A stretch of 63,336 bases of DNA, counting the filler. It is 16 parts of 16 records of this genome, joined end to end, with 100 filler letters (N's around TTAATTAATTAA, not from the genome) between each part and the next. Parts side by side here need not be neighbours in the genome. Positions count along the whole stretch, not along the records: positions 41,885 to 49,115 come from SRR16133337_50822; positions 49,216 to 51,853 come from SRR16133337_50827; 14 more parts are not named here. One strand, given 5' to 3'. The notes beneath the pieces are model-generated. The model was not told the DNA's origin. It saw only the letters and a program-made list of their open reading frames with translations, and searched no databases. The stretch's first letter is position 1. Every line of letters starts with the position of its first letter. Both the position numbers and the translations under genes were made by a program. Of this stretch, positions 1,507-51,853 are shown one piece after another.

Positions 1507-4500
1507 CTATACGGTTAATTCTTCTACTATTTGCTCTTCTGTCTCCAAACGTTTTAAAGCACGTTTATACTCAATAGGCATCACTTTTACAAAGTTGCTC
1601 AAACTCGTATCCCAATCGCTTAATAATTCAGTACCTCTATTACTATTCGTATAAAGTACATGTTTCTCAATTAATTCTTTTAAACCAGCGGTTTCTTCTG
1701 CTTCCATAGGTTCAAATTCGATCGATTCTGTATTGCACAATCCGTTGGTGAATTTGTCTTCTGGATCGTAGATATAAGCAATACCACCACTCATACCTGC
1801 GGCAAAGTTTCTTCCTGTATTCCCCAAAACAATAACTTTACCTCCCGTCATGTATTCACAACAATGATCTCCAACCCCTTCAACAACTGTTGTCACTCCA
1901 GAGTTACGAACAGCAAAACGTTCTCCTGCAATCCCATTTATATAGACTTCACCTGCTACAGCCCCAAACAAACAAACGTTTCCAACAATAATATTGTCTT
2001 CTGCTATAAAAGTTGCTTTGGCGGGTTTCTTTACAATTAGCTTTGCTCCAGACAATCCTTTTCCTAAATAATCATTGGTATTTCCTGCCACTGTAAATGT
2101 CAGTCCATGTGTTCCAAAAGCTCCGAAACTTTGCCCCGCAGACCCCGTAAATTTAATATTTAGTGTGTCTTCTGGCAATCCAGAGTGACCATATATTTTA
2201 GAAATTTCATTACTTACAATGGCCCCAACAGAACGATCTGTATTGTGAATAGGATATTCTAATGTCATTTGCTCTTTTCTCTGCAAAGCAGGGGGTGCAT
2301 CTTTTAAAATTTGGAAATCGATCACATTCTCTAAACCGTGCTCTTGTTTTTCAGTATTCTTAACAGGCATATTACTGTATTGAGCAGGTCTGTGTAAAAT
2401 TGCTGATAAATCCAATCCTTTTGCTTTGTAATGTGTAATCGTCTTGTTCGCATTTATTTTATGTGTTTGACCCACCATTTCACCCAAAGTTCTAAATCCT
2501 AGTTCTGCCATAATAGCTCTCAATTCTTCTGCAATATAGAAGAAGAAATTAATGACATGTTCTGGGGTTCCTTTAAAGTTCTTACGTAATGTTTTGTCTT
2601 GTGTTGCGATTCCAACAGGACAGGTATTTAAATGGCATTTACGCATCATAATACAACCCGAAGCTACTAAGGGAGCTGTTGCGAAACCAAATTCCTCAGC
2701 ACCTAATAAAGCGGCGATGGCCACATCACGACCTGTTTTTAACTGACCATCACATTCTACAACAATTCTACTTCTAAGATTATTTAAGACCAATGTTTGT
2801 TGGGCTTCCGCCAATCCCAGTTCCCAGGGAAGCCCCGCGTGTTTTAAGGAGGTTAAAGGAGAAGCTCCTGTACCTCCATCATAGCCAGAAATCAAAACTA
2901 CATCTGCTTTTGCTTTTGAAACTCCGGCAGCAATGGTACCTACACCGACTTCTGAAACTAATTTCACATTGATACGAGCTTCTCTATTGGCATTTTTCAA
3001 GTCATAAATCAATTGTGCTAAATCTTCAATGGAATAAATATCGTGATGTGGAGGTGGTGAAATTAATCCTACAAAAGGAGTAGAATTACGTGCCGATGCA
3101 ATCCAAGGCAATACTTTTTCACCTGGTAATTGTCCCCCTTCCCCAGGTTTTGCACCCTGAGCCATTTTAATTTGAATTTCTTTGGCGTTGGACAAATAGT
3201 GTGAGGTGACTCCAAAACGCCCAGAGGCCACTTGTTTGATGGCAGAGTTTCTACTGTCACCGTTGATATCTGGTTGAAAACGTTTTCTGTCTTCTCCTCC
3301 TTCACCAGAATTGGATTTACCTCCGATACGGTTCATGGCAATGGCTAAGTTTTCATGTGCTTCTCTTGAAATAGATCCGTAAGACATGGCACCTGTTTTA
3401 AAACGTTTTACAATTTCTGTCCAGGGTTCTACTTCCTCTAACGGAATGGGATCTAAATTATCGAACTCAAACAAACCACGAATCGTCATTAAGTTTGTAG
3501 ACTGTTCGTTCACCGTTTTTGCGTATCTATCATAACTGGCTTGATCGCTCAATCTAACGGCTTGTTGTAATTTTGCGACCGTTGTCGGATTAAACATATG
3601 TCTTTCTCCGTTACGTCTCCACCTATAGTCACCACCAATATTCAAGCCTAGTCTATTTTTGATCAGGGTATCAGGATAGGCATATTTATATCTTTCGTTG
3701 ATTTCTTTTTCAATTTCATACAAACCAATTCCTTCAATTCTTGAAGCGGTGTATGGGAAATATTTTTCGACAAACTTAGAATTGAATCCAACGATTTCAA
3801 AAATTTGAGAACCTCTGTATGAATGTAGTGTGGAGATTCCTATTTTATTCATCACTTTTAAGATTCCTTTTCCAATGGCTTTGTTAAAGTTGTCTACTGC
3901 TTTCTGTTCATCCATGCCTGTAATAAAACCTTCTTGAACCTGTATTCTGATAATTTCATTGACCATATAAGGATTGATCGCACTTGCACCGTACCCAAAT
4001 AAGGTTGCAAAATGATGCGGTTCACGTGGTTCCGCAGATTCGATAATGATATCGAAGGCAGAACGCTTCCGCAAACGGTTCATCTGATGATGTACATAGG
4101 AACAGGCTAATAAAGATGGAATCGGAGCAAACTGCTTGTTAACACCTCTATCGGATAAGATGATGATGTTGATTCCTCTTTCAATCGCTTTTGTTATTTG
4201 TAGGATGACCTTTTCCAAAGCATCTTCCAATCCGTTGAGTCCTCTTATTTTAGGATATAATATTTCAATGGTTTCTGCTTTAAAATTGTCTATCGAAATA
4301 TTTCTGATTTTTTCTAAATCCTTATTAGAGATCACTGGATTTTGAATTCTCAATTTTCGACATTGTTTTTTTGAAATGTCAAAGATATTTCTGTCTTGAC
4401 CTAATGCCAAGCTAATATCGGTTACAATTTCTTCACGGATACCATCTAAAGGTGGATTGGTAACTTGTGCAAATAGTTGTTTAAAGTAGTTTGAAATCAG

Positions 4501-36953: not shown

Positions 36954-37880
36954 TTACAATTCTAACAAGCTATTTGTTTTTTGAACTGCGGTAGCACTTA
37001 TGGCTAGTTTTGTTTTTTCAGCATCGCTCAAATTAATTTTTACAATTTCTTCGATTCCGTTTTTACCTAAAATTACAGGGACTCCAATACATAAATCCTT
37101 CAATCCGTATTCACCATTTAACAATGTGGAACAAGGAAATATTTTTTGAGTATCGCAAGCAATTGCTTGAACCATTGCAGATACCGCTGCCCCTGGAGCA
37201 TACCAAGCAGAAGTACCTAACATTCCTGTTAAAGTAGCTCCTCCAACCATCGTCGCTTTCGCAATTTCTTCTAACTTTTCTTTGGATAAAAATTCGCTTA
37301 CAGGAATCGCACTTCTTGTCGCCAATTTTGTCAATGGAATCATTCCAGTATCACTATGTCCACCAATGACCATTCCATCAACATCAGAAGCAGGAGCACC
37401 TAAAGCTTCCCCTAATTGGTACTTAAAACGAGCACTGTCTAAAGCCCCTCCCATTCCAATAATTCTATTTTTTGGAAGACCTGTAGCTTTGTGAACTAGA
37501 TAGGTCATTGTATCCATAGGATTACTAACTACAATAATAATAACCTTAGGAGAATGTTTGATAATATTCTCTGAAACAGATTTTACAATTCCTGCATTGA
37601 TTCCAATCAATTCTTCGCGGGTCATTCCTGGTTTACGAGGAATCCCACTTGTAATCACAGCAAGATCACTATTTGCCGTTTTAGAATAATCATTAGTAGT
37701 GCCTGTGATTTTGGTATCAAAACCATTTAAAGAAGCAGTTTGCATAAGATCTATCGCTTTTCCTTCTGCATAATTTTCTTTAATATCTACAATAACAACT
37801 TCTGTTGCAAAATTTTTGATGGCAATGTACTCAGCACAACTTGCACCAACAGCACCTGCTCCCACAACGGTAACTTTCAT
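36954..37880 (-). CDS. mdh: malate dehydrogenase (LDH-like)
   Basis: GAGAVG, GIPRKPGMTREEL, VSNPMD, LDSARF, GGHSD, SAWYAP. Confidence 0.96.
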   Translation of the reverse strand: MKVTVVGAGAVGASCAEYIAIKNFATEVVIVDIKENYAEGKAIDLMQTASLNGFDTKITGTTNDYSKTANSDLAVITSGIPRKPGMTREELIGINAGIVKSVSENIIKHSPKVIIIVVSNPMDTMTYLVHKATGLPKNRIIGMGGALDSARFKYQLGEALGAPASDVDGMVIGGHSDTGMIPLTKLATRSAIPVSEFLSKEKLEEIAKATMVGGATLTGMLGTSAWYAPGAAVSAMVQAIACDTQKIFPCSTLLNGEYGLKDLCIGVPVILGKNGIEEIVKINLSDAEKTKLAISATAVQKTNSLLEL

Positions 37881-41884: not shown

Positions 41885-42007
41885 GAAACCCGAATTTTTA
41901 TGCCCCTTTTTTTGCTTTCTGGCTGTAAGCTATAGGCTTTACTTATTTGTCTTGCAGTCGAGTTGTCTTGCAGTCTTTTTGTTCCCTTTTCTAACCGGGC
42001 GGAGTAT
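41885..42007. mobile_element. MITE-like element with inverted ends (left end cut by contig start) and an internal 16-bp tandem repeat
   Basis: Left GAAACCCGAATTTTTATGCCCC and right TTTCTAACCGGGCGGAGTAT are opposite orientations of the dispersed repeat; internal TTGTCTTGCAGTC occurs twice at a 16-bp period. Confidence 0.55.
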
Positions 42008-45596: not shown

Positions 45597-45653
45597 TTCT
45601 TTCTCCTATAAAAATTTGGGTTTCTAAGAGGTCAGAGCAACGATTCAGAGATG

Positions 45654-45694
45654 AACGAAAAAAAGGGGTTGTTATGCAACCCCTTTTTTTCGTT
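45654..45694. terminator. bidirectional intrinsic terminator between convergent mutS and sod
   Basis: 18-bp perfect stem AACGAAAAAAAGGGGTTG / CAACCCCTTTTTTTCGTT, 5-nt loop, with A and T tracts on both sides. Confidence 0.8.
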
Positions 45695-45724
45695 TATGGA
45701 AACGGTTTCTAAGTGGGCGGAGTA

Positions 45725-48992: not shown

Positions 48993-49246
48993 GTTTTTGA
49001 AGGTTTAAAATTCAGAGGGTAAAAATAAGCAAAGATTTTTAGAAATAGGAAGATAGAAATATAGAGAACAAAAAAGGATCAACGTTATATTCCGCCTGGT
49101 TAGAAACCCGAAAATNNNNNNNNNNNNNNNNNNNNNNNNNNNNNNNNNNNNNNNNNNNNTTAATTAATTAANNNNNNNNNNNNNNNNNNNNNNNNNNNNN
49201 NNNNNNNNNNNNNNNCTAACTTCGTTAAAATTTAAAACCATAGCTT

Positions 49247-49433
49247 GGGCTATGGTTAGTACGGGAATTAAAAGTACAAAACTTTCGATTTACCACAGAG
49301 CCAAATCTGTGATTTGGTATTTACCTTTTTTATATTCCTAAATGCCAGATCGCAGATTTGGCGGGACTTGCAAATAGGTAGAACCTTTCGTAATCCACCA
49401 AACAACGATGAGCTATACATCTTATTATCCAAA
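49247..49433. repeat. degenerate attC-like hairpin element downstream of cassette 2
   Basis: GGGCTATGGTTAGT arm resembles that of the 49737 element; inner 24-bp stem 49300-49323/49339-49362 has only G.T wobbles on the + strand; ends in ATTATCCAAA. Confidence 0.55.
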
Positions 49434-49436
49434 GTT

Positions 49437-49727
49437 TCACATATGACCACATACATCATTAAGCCAACCTTTTCGTTGTGCAATTGAATATGCACTTGAA
49501 GATTTCCTTGCAAATTCGGTTCTCAGTGCTTCTTCTATAATTTTTGCCTTGGTTCATTTCGGTAAATTCTTCTTATGACGCATGTGTTTGCAAACTTCTT
49601 CAAGCCACTTATTTTTGATAGCAATTGCATATGCCTTTGATTTTAACCTGAATTCTTTTTTTGTTTTAAATCTCAGGGCTTCCTCAATTACTTTCTCCTT
49701 TGTCCAATAGCCTGCTGAATGTCTCAT
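49437..49727 (-). pseudogene. unannotated two-repeat protein (WTKEK..EEA...EF...AY..A....WL..VC.HM x2) interrupted by an in-frame TGA at codon 58
   Basis: Manual translation: MRHSAGYWTKEKVIEEALRFKTKKEFRLKSKAYAIAIKNKWLEEVCKHMRHKKNLPK*TKAKIIEEALRTEFARKSSSAYSIAQRKGWLNDVCGHM*; the internal stop (49554-49556) falls exactly at the repeat's Trp. Confidence 0.75.
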
Positions 49728-49736
49728 TTAAATTTT

Positions 49737-49866
49737 GGATAACGGTTAGGCTATGGCTAGTAATGGGTTTGAAAACACTAGCTTTCGAAATTAGCTATAT
49801 TTGATTAACAGCACTAACTTTTGATTTTGCAACGAAGCCCTTATTAGCTATAGTCATTGTTACCTG
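49737..49866. repeat. complete attC-like recombination hairpin between cassettes (about 130 bp)
   Basis: GGATAAC...GTTACCTG core boxes, unpaired spacer, 20-bp stem 49750-49770/49835-49854 with four G.T pairs and one extrahelical T (49764) on the + strand. Confidence 0.7.
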
Positions 49867-50871
49867 TTGGCTTTTCCTGTTTTTAGATAATTTATTTTGT
49901 ATTCGTTTATTTCTGATTAAAATCCTAAAATATGGGCATTTTCCATTTATCGACAAATCTTTTTCATCATTTCCTTTTCTGAATTTAATTATTTCAAACT
50001 GTTCGGGATTGAATTTGTGTAGAAATGTAATAGGCACACCCATAAAACTACTGTAGTCTAATGGAATATCTTTAGTTTTATTAACGTTAATACCATCGTA
50101 ATTGTCATATTTAGGATATTCAATTTCGTTTCCAAGGTATTTTTTTGTGAGAGTAATATCTTCGTGTCGTTTAGAAGTGTCTAAATTAGTTAACCATAAA
50201 CAGTTGTTTGGTGAAACTATTCTGTTTCCTAGATCGTCAATTCGAGTTTCTGTTCCATACAATTCATAGTGTTCAGGTACAATAAAACCTGAAATACCTC
50301 TACCAAGATTTATTCCTAACCAAGCTCTATTTCCTTTAATAAGCTTAAATATTTCTTTATACGTGATTACATTAATGTTGCCAATTATCAAAAATTTCTT
50401 GTCGTATTTAACTAATTGAGCTACATATTCCCTGAATAATGAAAATGGGGGATTAGTAATTACAATATCTGATTGCTTTAATAATTCGATGCTTTCAGGA
50501 TTACGAAAATCGCCATCACTTTTAAAATGAACAATATCATTTGAATTTGGTTTGTCTTTTTCTCCTTCTTTACCTGTATATTCAAAGAAAAAGCCATTTT
50601 CAGTTTCTTCTGTATTAAATAAGTCATTCTTTTGTTCTTGATAGCAAGCAGCAATCAATTTTTTAAGACCTAATTCATTGAAATTAGATGCAAAATATTT
50701 AAAAAAATTACTAATACGAGCATCATCGCAATTACAAAAAACTACCTTATCTTTAAAATGGTTTTTATAATGTTGTAATTCACTTTCTATATCTGAAAGC
50801 TGTGTATAAAACTCATCATTTTTGTTTTGTTTTGCTTTAGTAAGCAAAGAGTGCTTTACTTTTCTTGCCAT
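49795..50871 (-). CDS. ecoRIM: EcoRI-family N6-adenine DNA methyltransferase
   Basis: AKQNKNDEFYTQ, VFCNCDD, SNFFKYF, DIVITNPPFSLFREY, MGVPITF, PYFRILI closely follow M.EcoRI; C-terminal tail runs into the attC-like site. Confidence 0.93.
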   Translation of the reverse strand: MARKVKHSLLTKAKQNKNDEFYTQLSDIESELQHYKNHFKDKVVFCNCDDARISNFFKYFASNFNELGLKKLIAACYQEQKNDLFNTEETENGFFFEYTGKEGEKDKPNSNDIVHFKSDGDFRNPESIELLKQSDIVITNPPFSLFREYVAQLVKYDKKFLIIGNINVITYKEIFKLIKGNRAWLGINLGRGISGFIVPEHYELYGTETRIDDLGNRIVSPNNCLWLTNLDTSKRHEDITLTKKYLGNEIEYPKYDNYDGINVNKTKDIPLDYSSFMGVPITFLHKFNPEQFEIIKFRKGNDEKDLSINGKCPYFRILIRNKRIQNKLSKNRKSQQVTMTIANKGFVAKSKVSAVNQI

Positions 50872-50877
50872 TGCTAT

Positions 50878-51714
50878 CTAATTATTTTCAGTTATTTGGT
50901 TAAATATTTCACTTCCTAAAACTTTAAGAGAGGTTCTAGAAATTTCCATCATAATATCAAACATTTTCTTTGCTTCCCATTTACCTCCATTTCCTTGTGA
51001 GTATATTGATGTCGCTTGAAGCATAATTGTTTTGTCCTTATGTTTTACAAACTTATTTTTACACAAGTTCGTGTTAATTGGCATTCCGTAATTTGCAGAT
51101 GTCAATCTGTCTAGTCTATTTAGCATTCCTGAATTGTATTCAAGTTTTACGATTCTACCATCAGGTCTTTTAATTGAGATTGTTTCTGTTAAGAAATTTG
51201 ACCCTTCTAAAAACAAGACATATGGGAAATGAGATTCAGATAACATCAAATTAGCAATCTCCGATATGTTTTTATGAGACCTTTCTATTGCATTTCCAGC
51301 AGCCATTAAATCTTGATTATTGTTTTTACCAACTAATTTTCCTTTTTCTATGTTATCGATGTCTTTTCCTTGATGTTTAGCTTCTGATACTAACACTATT
51401 CTCCAGTTGTTATCATCATCTTTGACTTCAATTACTCCTCCGTCAGGTTTAATACTTGAGTTTGATACAAAAAGAGTTAGACCTAGTTCTTTATCAACTT
51501 TCTGTAAAGCTTTGTTTATTTCTTCTTTTTTTATGCTCGTTTTGTATTGAAAAGATAATTGAGGATATTCTTTTTCAAGTTGTTCAATCACAAGATTTGA
51601 TATTTTTCCAACTGTTATATCGTGTAATTTTGCTTCATCTCCAAATATGCCAACTACGCCTTGAGACTTTTTATGTTGATTTGTTAACCTTTTTGATTGA
51701 TTCTTTTTAGACAT
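50878..51714 (-). CDS. ecoRIR: EcoRI-family type II restriction endonuclease (predicted GAATTC specificity)
   Basis: SNSSIKPDGG...EAKHQG catalytic motif, QDLMAAGNAIERSHKNISE recognition segment, LNRLDRLT; collinear with R.EcoRI over 278 aa. Confidence 0.95.
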   Translation of the reverse strand: MSKKNQSKRLTNQHKKSQGVVGIFGDEAKLHDITVGKISNLVIEQLEKEYPQLSFQYKTSIKKEEINKALQKVDKELGLTLFVSNSSIKPDGGVIEVKDDDNNWRIVLVSEAKHQGKDIDNIEKGKLVGKNNNQDLMAAGNAIERSHKNISEIANLMLSESHFPYVLFLEGSNFLTETISIKRPDGRIVKLEYNSGMLNRLDRLTSANYGMPINTNLCKNKFVKHKDKTIMLQATSIYSQGNGGKWEAKKMFDIMMEISRTSLKVLGSEIFNQITENN

Positions 51715-51786
51715 AATTATTAGCTATCAATATTTTATTTTACAAAAGCACAAAATTTGAACTGATGTTTCTGGTTTCGGTGCTTG

Positions 51787-51853
51787 CAGGTAACGTGTTT
51801 GTATATGGTTTGTTGCGTGTTTCAAGCACCTAATTTAGCAAATACAAACCGAA
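51787..51853. repeat. partial attC-like element upstream of the EcoRI cassette (cut by contig end)
   Basis: CAGGTAAC-GTGTTT-GTATATGGTTTGT has the same TAAC plus TATGGYTWGT arm layout as the 49737 and 49247 elements. Confidence 0.6.

Follow-up and report, generated by a model that had tools for sequence, protein, structure and literature searches.

A probable fragment of an integron-like gene-cassette array with an intact EcoRI-type restriction-modification cassette in a flavobacterial-type contig

The DNA stretch analyzed here, referred to as the window (63,336 nucleotides), consists of 16 short contigs connected by linkers of the form N44-TTAATTAATTAA-N44. One of them, a 2,638-bp contig at positions 49216-51853 derived from a metagenome-assembled genome (MAG), carries a restriction-modification (R-M) gene pair of the EcoRI type placed between sites which resemble attC, the recombination sites of integrons. 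Two cassettes and three such sites (E1, E2 and E3), all on one strand, were recognized on it (Table 1), and the contig very likely represents part of an integron-like array of gene cassettes, as present in Flavobacteriaceae and other Bacteroidota, with an intact mobile EcoRI-type R-M cassette. The contigs were joined artificially, therefore the window neighbors of the R-M contig are not its physical neighbors. With a GC content of 0.308 it is the lowest in GC among the window contigs. The label "flavobacterial-type", given to the bin in the original prediction made on this DNA, fits a malate dehydrogenase encoded on another contig of the same bin, which is 75-81% identical to its counterparts in four Flavobacteriaceae genomes, while its match to a fifth genome of that family is partial, with 67% identity.

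Table 1. Features of the R-M contig, in window coordinates and listed in the direction of the genes.
Feature	Position	Strand	Remarks
E1, 3' half of the attC-like site of the preceding cassette	51788-51853	-	cut by the contig end; sequence matches L002 and L019
Start box of the R-M unit, GTTACCTG	51787-51794	-	
Cassette 1, complete R-M cassette	49743-51793	-	2,051 bp, beginning with TT of the upstream GTT and ending with G of its own
Predicted promoter-like box, TGCTTTTG	51743-51750	-	upstream of the start codon of R by 28 nt
R gene, R.EcoRI orthologue	50878-51714	-	278 aa, intact
M gene, M.EcoRI-type adenine methyltransferase	49795-50871	-	358 aa, intact
End box (R'') of the R-M unit, CAGGTAAC	49859-49866	-	
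E2, attC-like site of the R-M cassette	49737-49866	-	130 nt; aligned with 14 sites of other genomes
Start of the next unit, GTTATCCAAA	49734-49743	-	
Cassette 2, apparently decayed	49243-49742	-	start box TTATCCAAA complementary to its own R'', TTTGGATAA
Small open reading frame (ORF) and second module copy	49437-49727	-	57 aa (49727-49554); phrog_20046 match; stop 49439-49437
End box of the next unit, TTTGGATAAT	49424-49433	-	
E3, long-variant attC-like site	49244-49433	-	about 190 nt; inner accessory hairpin 49300-49362
Tail, high-copy palindromic repeat	49216-49254	-	replaces the E3 crossover box; assembly ends there

Pfam domains confirm the EcoRI-like pair of the original prediction. The R protein covers the whole of PF02963 (4e-150, profile 1-257 of 257) and aligns in full length with R.EcoRI (PDB 1CKQ, 450.6 bits, residues 2-276 on 1-275), and the M protein matches PF13651 (1e-130, residues 10-321). 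The two ORFs lie on the same strand, R first, separated by a 6-nt gap, and the final 23 codons and the stop of M fall within E2. The same order of homologous enzymes on one strand is found in the EcoRI system of E. coli plasmids (PDB 1CKQ/1ERI), but unlike there, the pair is here a 2,051-bp cassette with a recombination site of its own. At the position of the box TGCTTTTG related loci have TAtcTTTG, TAacTTTG or TAccTTTG. The consensus of the -7 promoter element in Bacteroidota is TAnnTTTG, and the R-M cassette would drive its own expression through this predicted promoter-like box.

Reading of the minus strand recovered all four boxes that had been described at the ends of the two units. E1 terminates in CGTT together with GTTACCT (51794-51788), with which the R-M cassette starts, and E2 consists of CAGGTAAC as the R'' box, the L'' and L' arms, CGTT and then the first bases of the next cassette. 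The end boxes of E2, which were supposed to pair only at TAAC/GTTA, pair also at GG/CC if one bulged base is allowed. A repeat search found 119 inverted-repeat pairs in this contig, therefore inverted boxes alone are not significant, and the 29-nt arm shared between the elements (76% identity) has equally good direct repeats inside genes. The shorter motif TATGGYTWGT, proposed as an arm common to the three elements, was rejected as a marker of the family because it is too short; one of its four hits in the window lies by chance inside the malate dehydrogenase gene mdh at 36999. What stands of that proposal is that the three elements are related, since all belong to one site family. Fold energies are of no more help: compared with shuffled sequences z is 0.03-0.19 for E2 and -0.47 to -0.66 for E1, so that fold energy neither supports nor rejects these sites, and only E3, one of the three elements, folds better than shuffles (z -2.45). 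All this could be attributed to chance inverted repeats, terminators or repetitive extragenic palindromic (REP) elements surrounding an ordinary R-M island. Significance of the boxes comes instead from their position and from the relatives, and these leave such an explanation hardly any probability, as the covariation of boxes, the co-orientation of sites, the compensatory changes in their stems and the breakpoints at GTT described below all contradict it.

To compare the R-M unit across relatives, one genome per species was scanned, which gave 316 relatives of the R protein, and the best 80 loci, with 82-95% protein identity and from many phyla, were examined. The earliest start of DNA similarity to the contig is at 51807-51844, and it extends no further than 49737. 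Upstream of R, about 80 nt from its start codon, many loci have the sequence CGTTACCTGCAAGC in common, and after M the sequence GCCAGCAGGTAAC, which is followed by a hairpin element of variable sequence ending in CGTT, and beyond this point the loci are unrelated. Both flanks could be read in 63 of the 80 loci: both boxes are present in 22, neither in 38 and one only in three. Of the 22 boxed loci, 20 have start and end boxes which complement each other perfectly over 9 nt and covary among four variants (GTTACCTGC, GTTGCCTGC, GTTGGGTGC and GTTAGTAGC). Mean pairwise identity of positions +4 to +9 is 0.77 after the upstream GTT (n=14) and 0.34 after the downstream GTT (n=17), and site ends of R-M cassettes in relatives are spaced 2,045-2,124 bp apart, compared to 2,051 bp here. 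When loci are compared, at least 12 different R'' boxes occur in the site before the R-M cassette, and the sequence following the cassette is a different one in every locus, which indicates that the same R-M unit sits in many different array neighborhoods, at least 12 of them, with similarity stopping at GTT. The same R-M cassette is thus found in many arrays with its breakpoints at GTT, where they were anticipated. In the two boxed loci with mismatched start and end boxes, L001 and L010, the R-M cassette starts with GTTATGGGC, whereas the site belonging to it carries GCAGGTAAC; that the same odd box occurs in two loci suggests a shared recombination history and not random mutation.

The sites following M genes, E2 and 14 from other genomes, without exception measure 130-133 nt, AAC and CGTT do not vary in them, and RNAalifold predicts 19 pairs in their alignment, 15 of which show compensatory changes. 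A covariance model built from this alignment, to which E2 itself belongs (its own score of 112.6 bits is therefore trivial), gave 69 hits with E of at most 0.01, which are spread over 22 of the 80 loci and lie, all 69, on the strand of the R-M genes. Nine further Flavobacteriaceae genomes contain 103 more, and in each the array keeps to one strand, save one isolated hit on the opposite strand (G174); in relatives array density reaches about 20 sites per 20 kb. In 72 distinct sites from seven genomes outside the model 91.7% of cells are paired, against 68.5% in shuffles (none of 500 reach the observed value) and 13-42% in slid controls, in an alignment which, being fitted to the model, is biased toward pairing. 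Such co-oriented, structured and covarying elements are not ordinary terminators or REPs. Among 139 full-length sites 108 are short (up to 145 nt) and 31 long (more than 175 nt), and 133 possess GTT. The original prediction that these sites deviate from the consensus RYYYAAC/GTTRRRY is also true of the wider set, where only six fit RYYYAAC and seven GTTRRRY; 138 of the 139 sites have A or G at position 4 of R', and positions 5-7 are free. Short sites have an asymmetric spacer, 4 nt versus 6-8 nt, and an L stem with three 1x1 interruptions and no clear single bulges. Only the + (bottom) strand of E2 adopts the full R/L hairpin as its minimum-energy fold, and a search of Rfam gave no family for the sites or for the tail repeat. 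The sites share an R''-L''...L'-R' hairpin architecture with AAC...CGTT.

Two direct copies of a motif similar to AAAGT..AGTG were observed in the loop of short sites, conserved across distant taxa while the stems covary (alignment columns ~44-56 and ~82-95, window ~49823-49811 and ~49786-49775). This loop motif may be a putative binding site of an accessory protein.

The relation between a cassette's first bases and its own site was examined in 52 consecutive site pairs from 22 loci, by comparing the six variable bases after GTT with R'' of the next site. Incomplete hits were dropped, L091 and L093/L094, which overlap loci L043 and L049 and are larger, were used in their place, and the two sites of L092 were omitted. 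Complementarity within the cassette is on average 4.88 of six positions, and 31 of the 52 pairs are perfect, while the mean is 2.28 between boxes of the same hairpin (n=74) and 2.40 between loci, where 128 of 4,978 pairs are perfect. The enrichment of complementary first and last boxes, predicted for other cassettes, is evident from these numbers, and the first 6-9 bases of a cassette complement R'' of its own site. Because the bases of CGTT are invariant, the crossover can be placed within CGTT and not at an exact phosphate. Cassettes which are not of R-M size follow the same rule, with 20 of 40 pairs perfect, and this bears on another possible explanation, namely that the R-M pair is a selfish unit traveling by some other hairpin or transposon-like route, whose ends are the flanking elements. 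Boxes are absent from 38 of the 63 related R-M loci, so other routes of transfer exist, and an IS91 element with its own recombinase is inserted in the array of an Aequorivita-type genome (L091). Still, ORF reading and a domain search of the contig revealed no transposase in or beside the R-M cassette, and sites of this one family occur beside many unrelated cargoes, arranged in tandem and in a single orientation. We consider the selfish unit a quite improbable explanation. The points named beforehand as capable of overturning the cassette reading, i.e. breakpoints at GTT, box complementarity and distinctness from terminators or REPs, all came out in its favor.

In relatives, the start of the array adjoins a tyrosine recombinase, which has 368-393 aa in the Aequorivita-type genome and in Flavobacterium covae. 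Homologues with 34-51% identity (164-250 bits) to the L091 and L093 proteins lie directly upstream of arrays and co-directional with them in G003, G082, G028, G318, G124, G338 and G406; in terms of the nine further Flavobacteriaceae arrays this arrangement is present in five, and in addition in one Paludibacter genome. The recombinase at the head of the Paludibacter array (L134, 16823-18514) is a protein of 563 aa with a long N-terminal extension, and the recombinases of F. covae and Aequorivita, too, are unlike each other in the N-terminal part. Behind the recombinase stop the start box predicted from R'' of the first cassette was found as an exact 9-mer after 51 nt in G124 and after 356 nt in G406, and with one mismatch after the recombinase in two other arrays, which suggests that the insertion site is just downstream of the gene. 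Other recombinase hits inside arrays were discarded as candidates for the array enzyme, since they belong to inserted IS91 elements. The one in L091 (4279-6338) comprises an IS91-family transposase gene and its own tyrosine recombinase of 300 aa, near-identical copies of which are present at four other places in the same genome and which is easily mistaken for the enzyme of the array.

An ordinary integron array, a cluster of attC sites lacking integron-integrases (CALIN) with true attC sites and a classical IntI encoded elsewhere or on a mobile element, would account for much of the above. The bookkeeping of boxes is the same as in integrons, the short variant of 130-133 nt is within the length range of attC, and agreement with descriptions of attC extends to the architecture, to the ends AAC...GTT and to a conserved C that precedes GTT; for attC one report notes that on the bottom strand AAC is followed by a conserved G (PMC2727003). 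This is contradicted by the enzyme and by the boxes. None of five array-bearing genomes has a protein above the TIGR02249 cut-off of 265 bits; the array-head recombinases reach 184-194 bits, in two stretches which skip positions 182-238 of the profile, and 196-198 bits on the XerA model. An alignment with VchIntIA (PDB 2A3V) places 25 residues of the array-head recombinase against 68 of IntI. The recombinase adjoining the arrays is the Xer-like one, and GTTRRRY and RYYYAAC, as stated, are rarely matched. A classical integron array is for these reasons an unlikely explanation, and we regard the system as integron-like in its site logic only, since the recombinases of the relatives do not pass the test for the IntI domain and the box consensus is mostly not matched.

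Like integrons and CALINs, the arrays consist of tandem co-oriented cassettes with imperfect R''-L''...L'-R' palindromes ending in AAC...GTT, with a crossover at or beside G|TT, after which a cassette starts with the tail of its own site. They differ from integrons in that the recombinase of relatives is without the IntI insertion, below the TIGR02249 cut-off and usually co-directional with the cassettes, and in that a variant of about 190 nt with an inner hairpin is present here, besides the boxes which rarely fit the consensus. Discrete gene modules moved by Xer-type tyrosine recombinases are known from integrative mobile elements exploiting Xer (IMEX) and from the dif modules of Acinetobacter plasmids, and something similar is proposed here; those use short double-stranded dif-like sites and the XerC/D of the host, unlike the hairpin-forming sites of 130-200 nt and the dedicated recombinase at the head of the arrays. 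According to the IntegronFinder 2.0 report, Bacteroidetes are nearly without integrons, with only In0 elements and one complete integron, in Salinibacter (PMC9024848). Small restriction systems of types II and IV and other defense genes have already been reported as integron cassettes (10.1101/2024.07.02.601686).

Among published systems the one nearest to these arrays is rAID-1, the recombinase-associated acquired interbacterial defense clusters of gut Bacteroidales, whose intergenic repeats are called by the authors "reminiscent of integrons" (10.1101/471110, PMC12247911). There it is defined by a cargo of immunity genes and by identity to one B. fragilis recombinase, that of the reference strain NCTC 9343, with at least 44% required (10.1101/471110). 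Compared by description, its layout of a 5' XerD-like recombinase and at least two co-directional genes downstream is seen in seven relatives including Paludibacter. Genes of rAID-1 are short, co-directional and low in GC, as they are here, the contig having 30.8% compared to a threshold of at most 41%, whereas rAID-1 carries orphan immunity genes and the present contig an R-M pair together with a small ORF whose function is unknown. The words integron, hairpin, excision and circular do not occur in the accessible text of PMC12247911. Beyond rAID-1, we found no paper on attC-like cassette arrays or box bookkeeping with an Xer-like recombinase in Flavobacteriaceae, a statement that concerns main texts, as supplements and figures may bear on it.

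In the mechanism we propose, recombination between two folded sites, at G|TT or beside it, would excise a cassette as a circle, and the circle would then re-insert at a primary site beside the recombinase. The catalyst would be the Xer-like tyrosine recombinase which heads the arrays in relatives and is without the IntI-specific insertion. The R-M cassette would be self-expressed and could serve in defense against phages, and addiction to it would possibly make loss of the array costly and so stabilize it. In a broader sense, we lean slightly towards the view that this is a phylum-wide analogue of integrons in Bacteroidota which operates without IntI. An Xer-like recombinase at the array head would in that case join folded attC-like sites of 130-200 nt at G|TT, with the insertion site just downstream of its gene; the EcoRI-type cassette of 2.05 kb would have spread among distant lineages and rAID-1 would be one branch of the system. 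Bacteroidota are considered almost devoid of integrons, and the IntI-specific domain which reads the folded attC is considered to define an integron. If the proposal is correct, the cassette strategy is not tied to IntI and a second, independent system for structure-specific recombination exists. The cassette form also provides a concrete vehicle for a part of the spread of EcoRI-type R-M systems (22 of 63 loci). Repeat-rich arrays break short-read assemblies, here at both ends of the contig, and defense cargo is therefore probably under-counted in MAG surveys.

Several observations weigh against this interpretation, in addition to the many inverted repeats, the fold energies of E1 and E2 and the bias of the 72-site alignment already mentioned. 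Gene reading of the 2,638-bp contig found no recombinase, as noted already in the original prediction, so that the link to an Xer-like enzyme rests on relatives. In these the gene is divergent from the array in G005 and in F. covae, and four of the nine further arrays have no such recombinase within the 20-40 kb examined. The loci without boxes show that this R-M type spreads also by other routes, two of the 22 boxed loci (L001 and L010) have a start box that mismatches the end box, and 21 of the 52 pairs in the bookkeeping comparison are imperfect, some of them being register shifts of 1-2 nt or missed sites. Mobility of cassette 2 is not supported, because its coding part has no DNA relatives in the genomes searched and its site is defective. 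With filters off, the covariance model found no further convincing site on the other 15 contigs of the window, where the best match (45646-45710) has 13.7 bits and E 0.27. The motif GAATTC is not depleted in the window (31 observed, 27 expected), a count uninformative on the specificity or activity of the enzymes. Finally, neither a 2,051-bp circle nor a cassette-free array junction was present among the joints listed in Logan contigs, the only material compared, of four public runs (X1-X4); a skip of 854 nt in X3 was disregarded as its shorter side is only 21 letters long.

The original prediction spoke of an array of mobile cassettes that stocks defense genes. The array is supported, but there is only one defense cassette here, and cassette 2 looks like a decayed and immobilized cassette. 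Its start box complements its own R'' at 6/6 variable positions, as was predicted, a degree reached in 128 of 4,978 between-locus controls. On this contig a GTT crossover box is missing from E3, which lacks the terminal CGTT and has AAT in R'' instead of the invariant AAC. The assignment of E3 to the long variant is nevertheless clear. When 29 long sites of other genomes were combined into a profile, nhmmer aligned its positions 4-189 (of 197) with 49428-49244 at E 4.5e-25, and both the inverted repeat and a side-by-side comparison with the long sites of L091 show the inner hairpin typical of the variant. BLAST matches to cassette 2 were obtained in 74 of 401 Flavobacteriaceae genomes, nearly all of them in E3 (~49243-49393) and many close to contig ends, and apart from matches of 23-58 nt the coding part has no DNA relative in these genomes. 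It contains an ORF of 57 aa, then one in-frame TGA and a shorter second copy of the same module of about 40 aa. The small ORF has no Pfam family and matches phrog_20046, of unknown function, with E 9.9e-11 (profile 244-296 of 302).

At the other end of the contig, E1 is 88.5% identical over 61 nt to positions 3344-3404 of the Patiriisocius locus L002, within a complete site at 3274-3408, and from window position 51844 it aligns contiguously with the homologous site of a Tenacibaculum MAG (L019). The E1 stretch has raised depth in all four public runs, with loose ends at 51791-51797; contigs which match E1 and diverge at these positions number six in X1, five in X3 and one in X4. Run X4 contains 0.91 of the words and is probably the source sample, therefore it is not independent evidence. 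Small shares of the words are present in X1-X3, which are uninformative on habitat.

From 49254 to the contig end a different palindromic repeat takes over, again with loose ends at 49254, and in X4 its summed depth is 3,891 compared to 80 for the rest of the contig. The motif of this tail was observed also as the center of a larger palindromic intergenic element in seven other Flavobacteriaceae loci (L109-L115). A comparison of contig ends across the window showed no halves of sites common to them. In the Aequorivita-type array a cassette of 489 bp without an obvious ORF is present in four copies, three of them in tandem (L091 13342-14809 and 18211-18700). The neighboring 7.2-kb contig of the window carries the same GAAACCCGAA-containing sequence at both of its ends (41885-41900 and 49095-49115), which may be another repeat that breaks assemblies.

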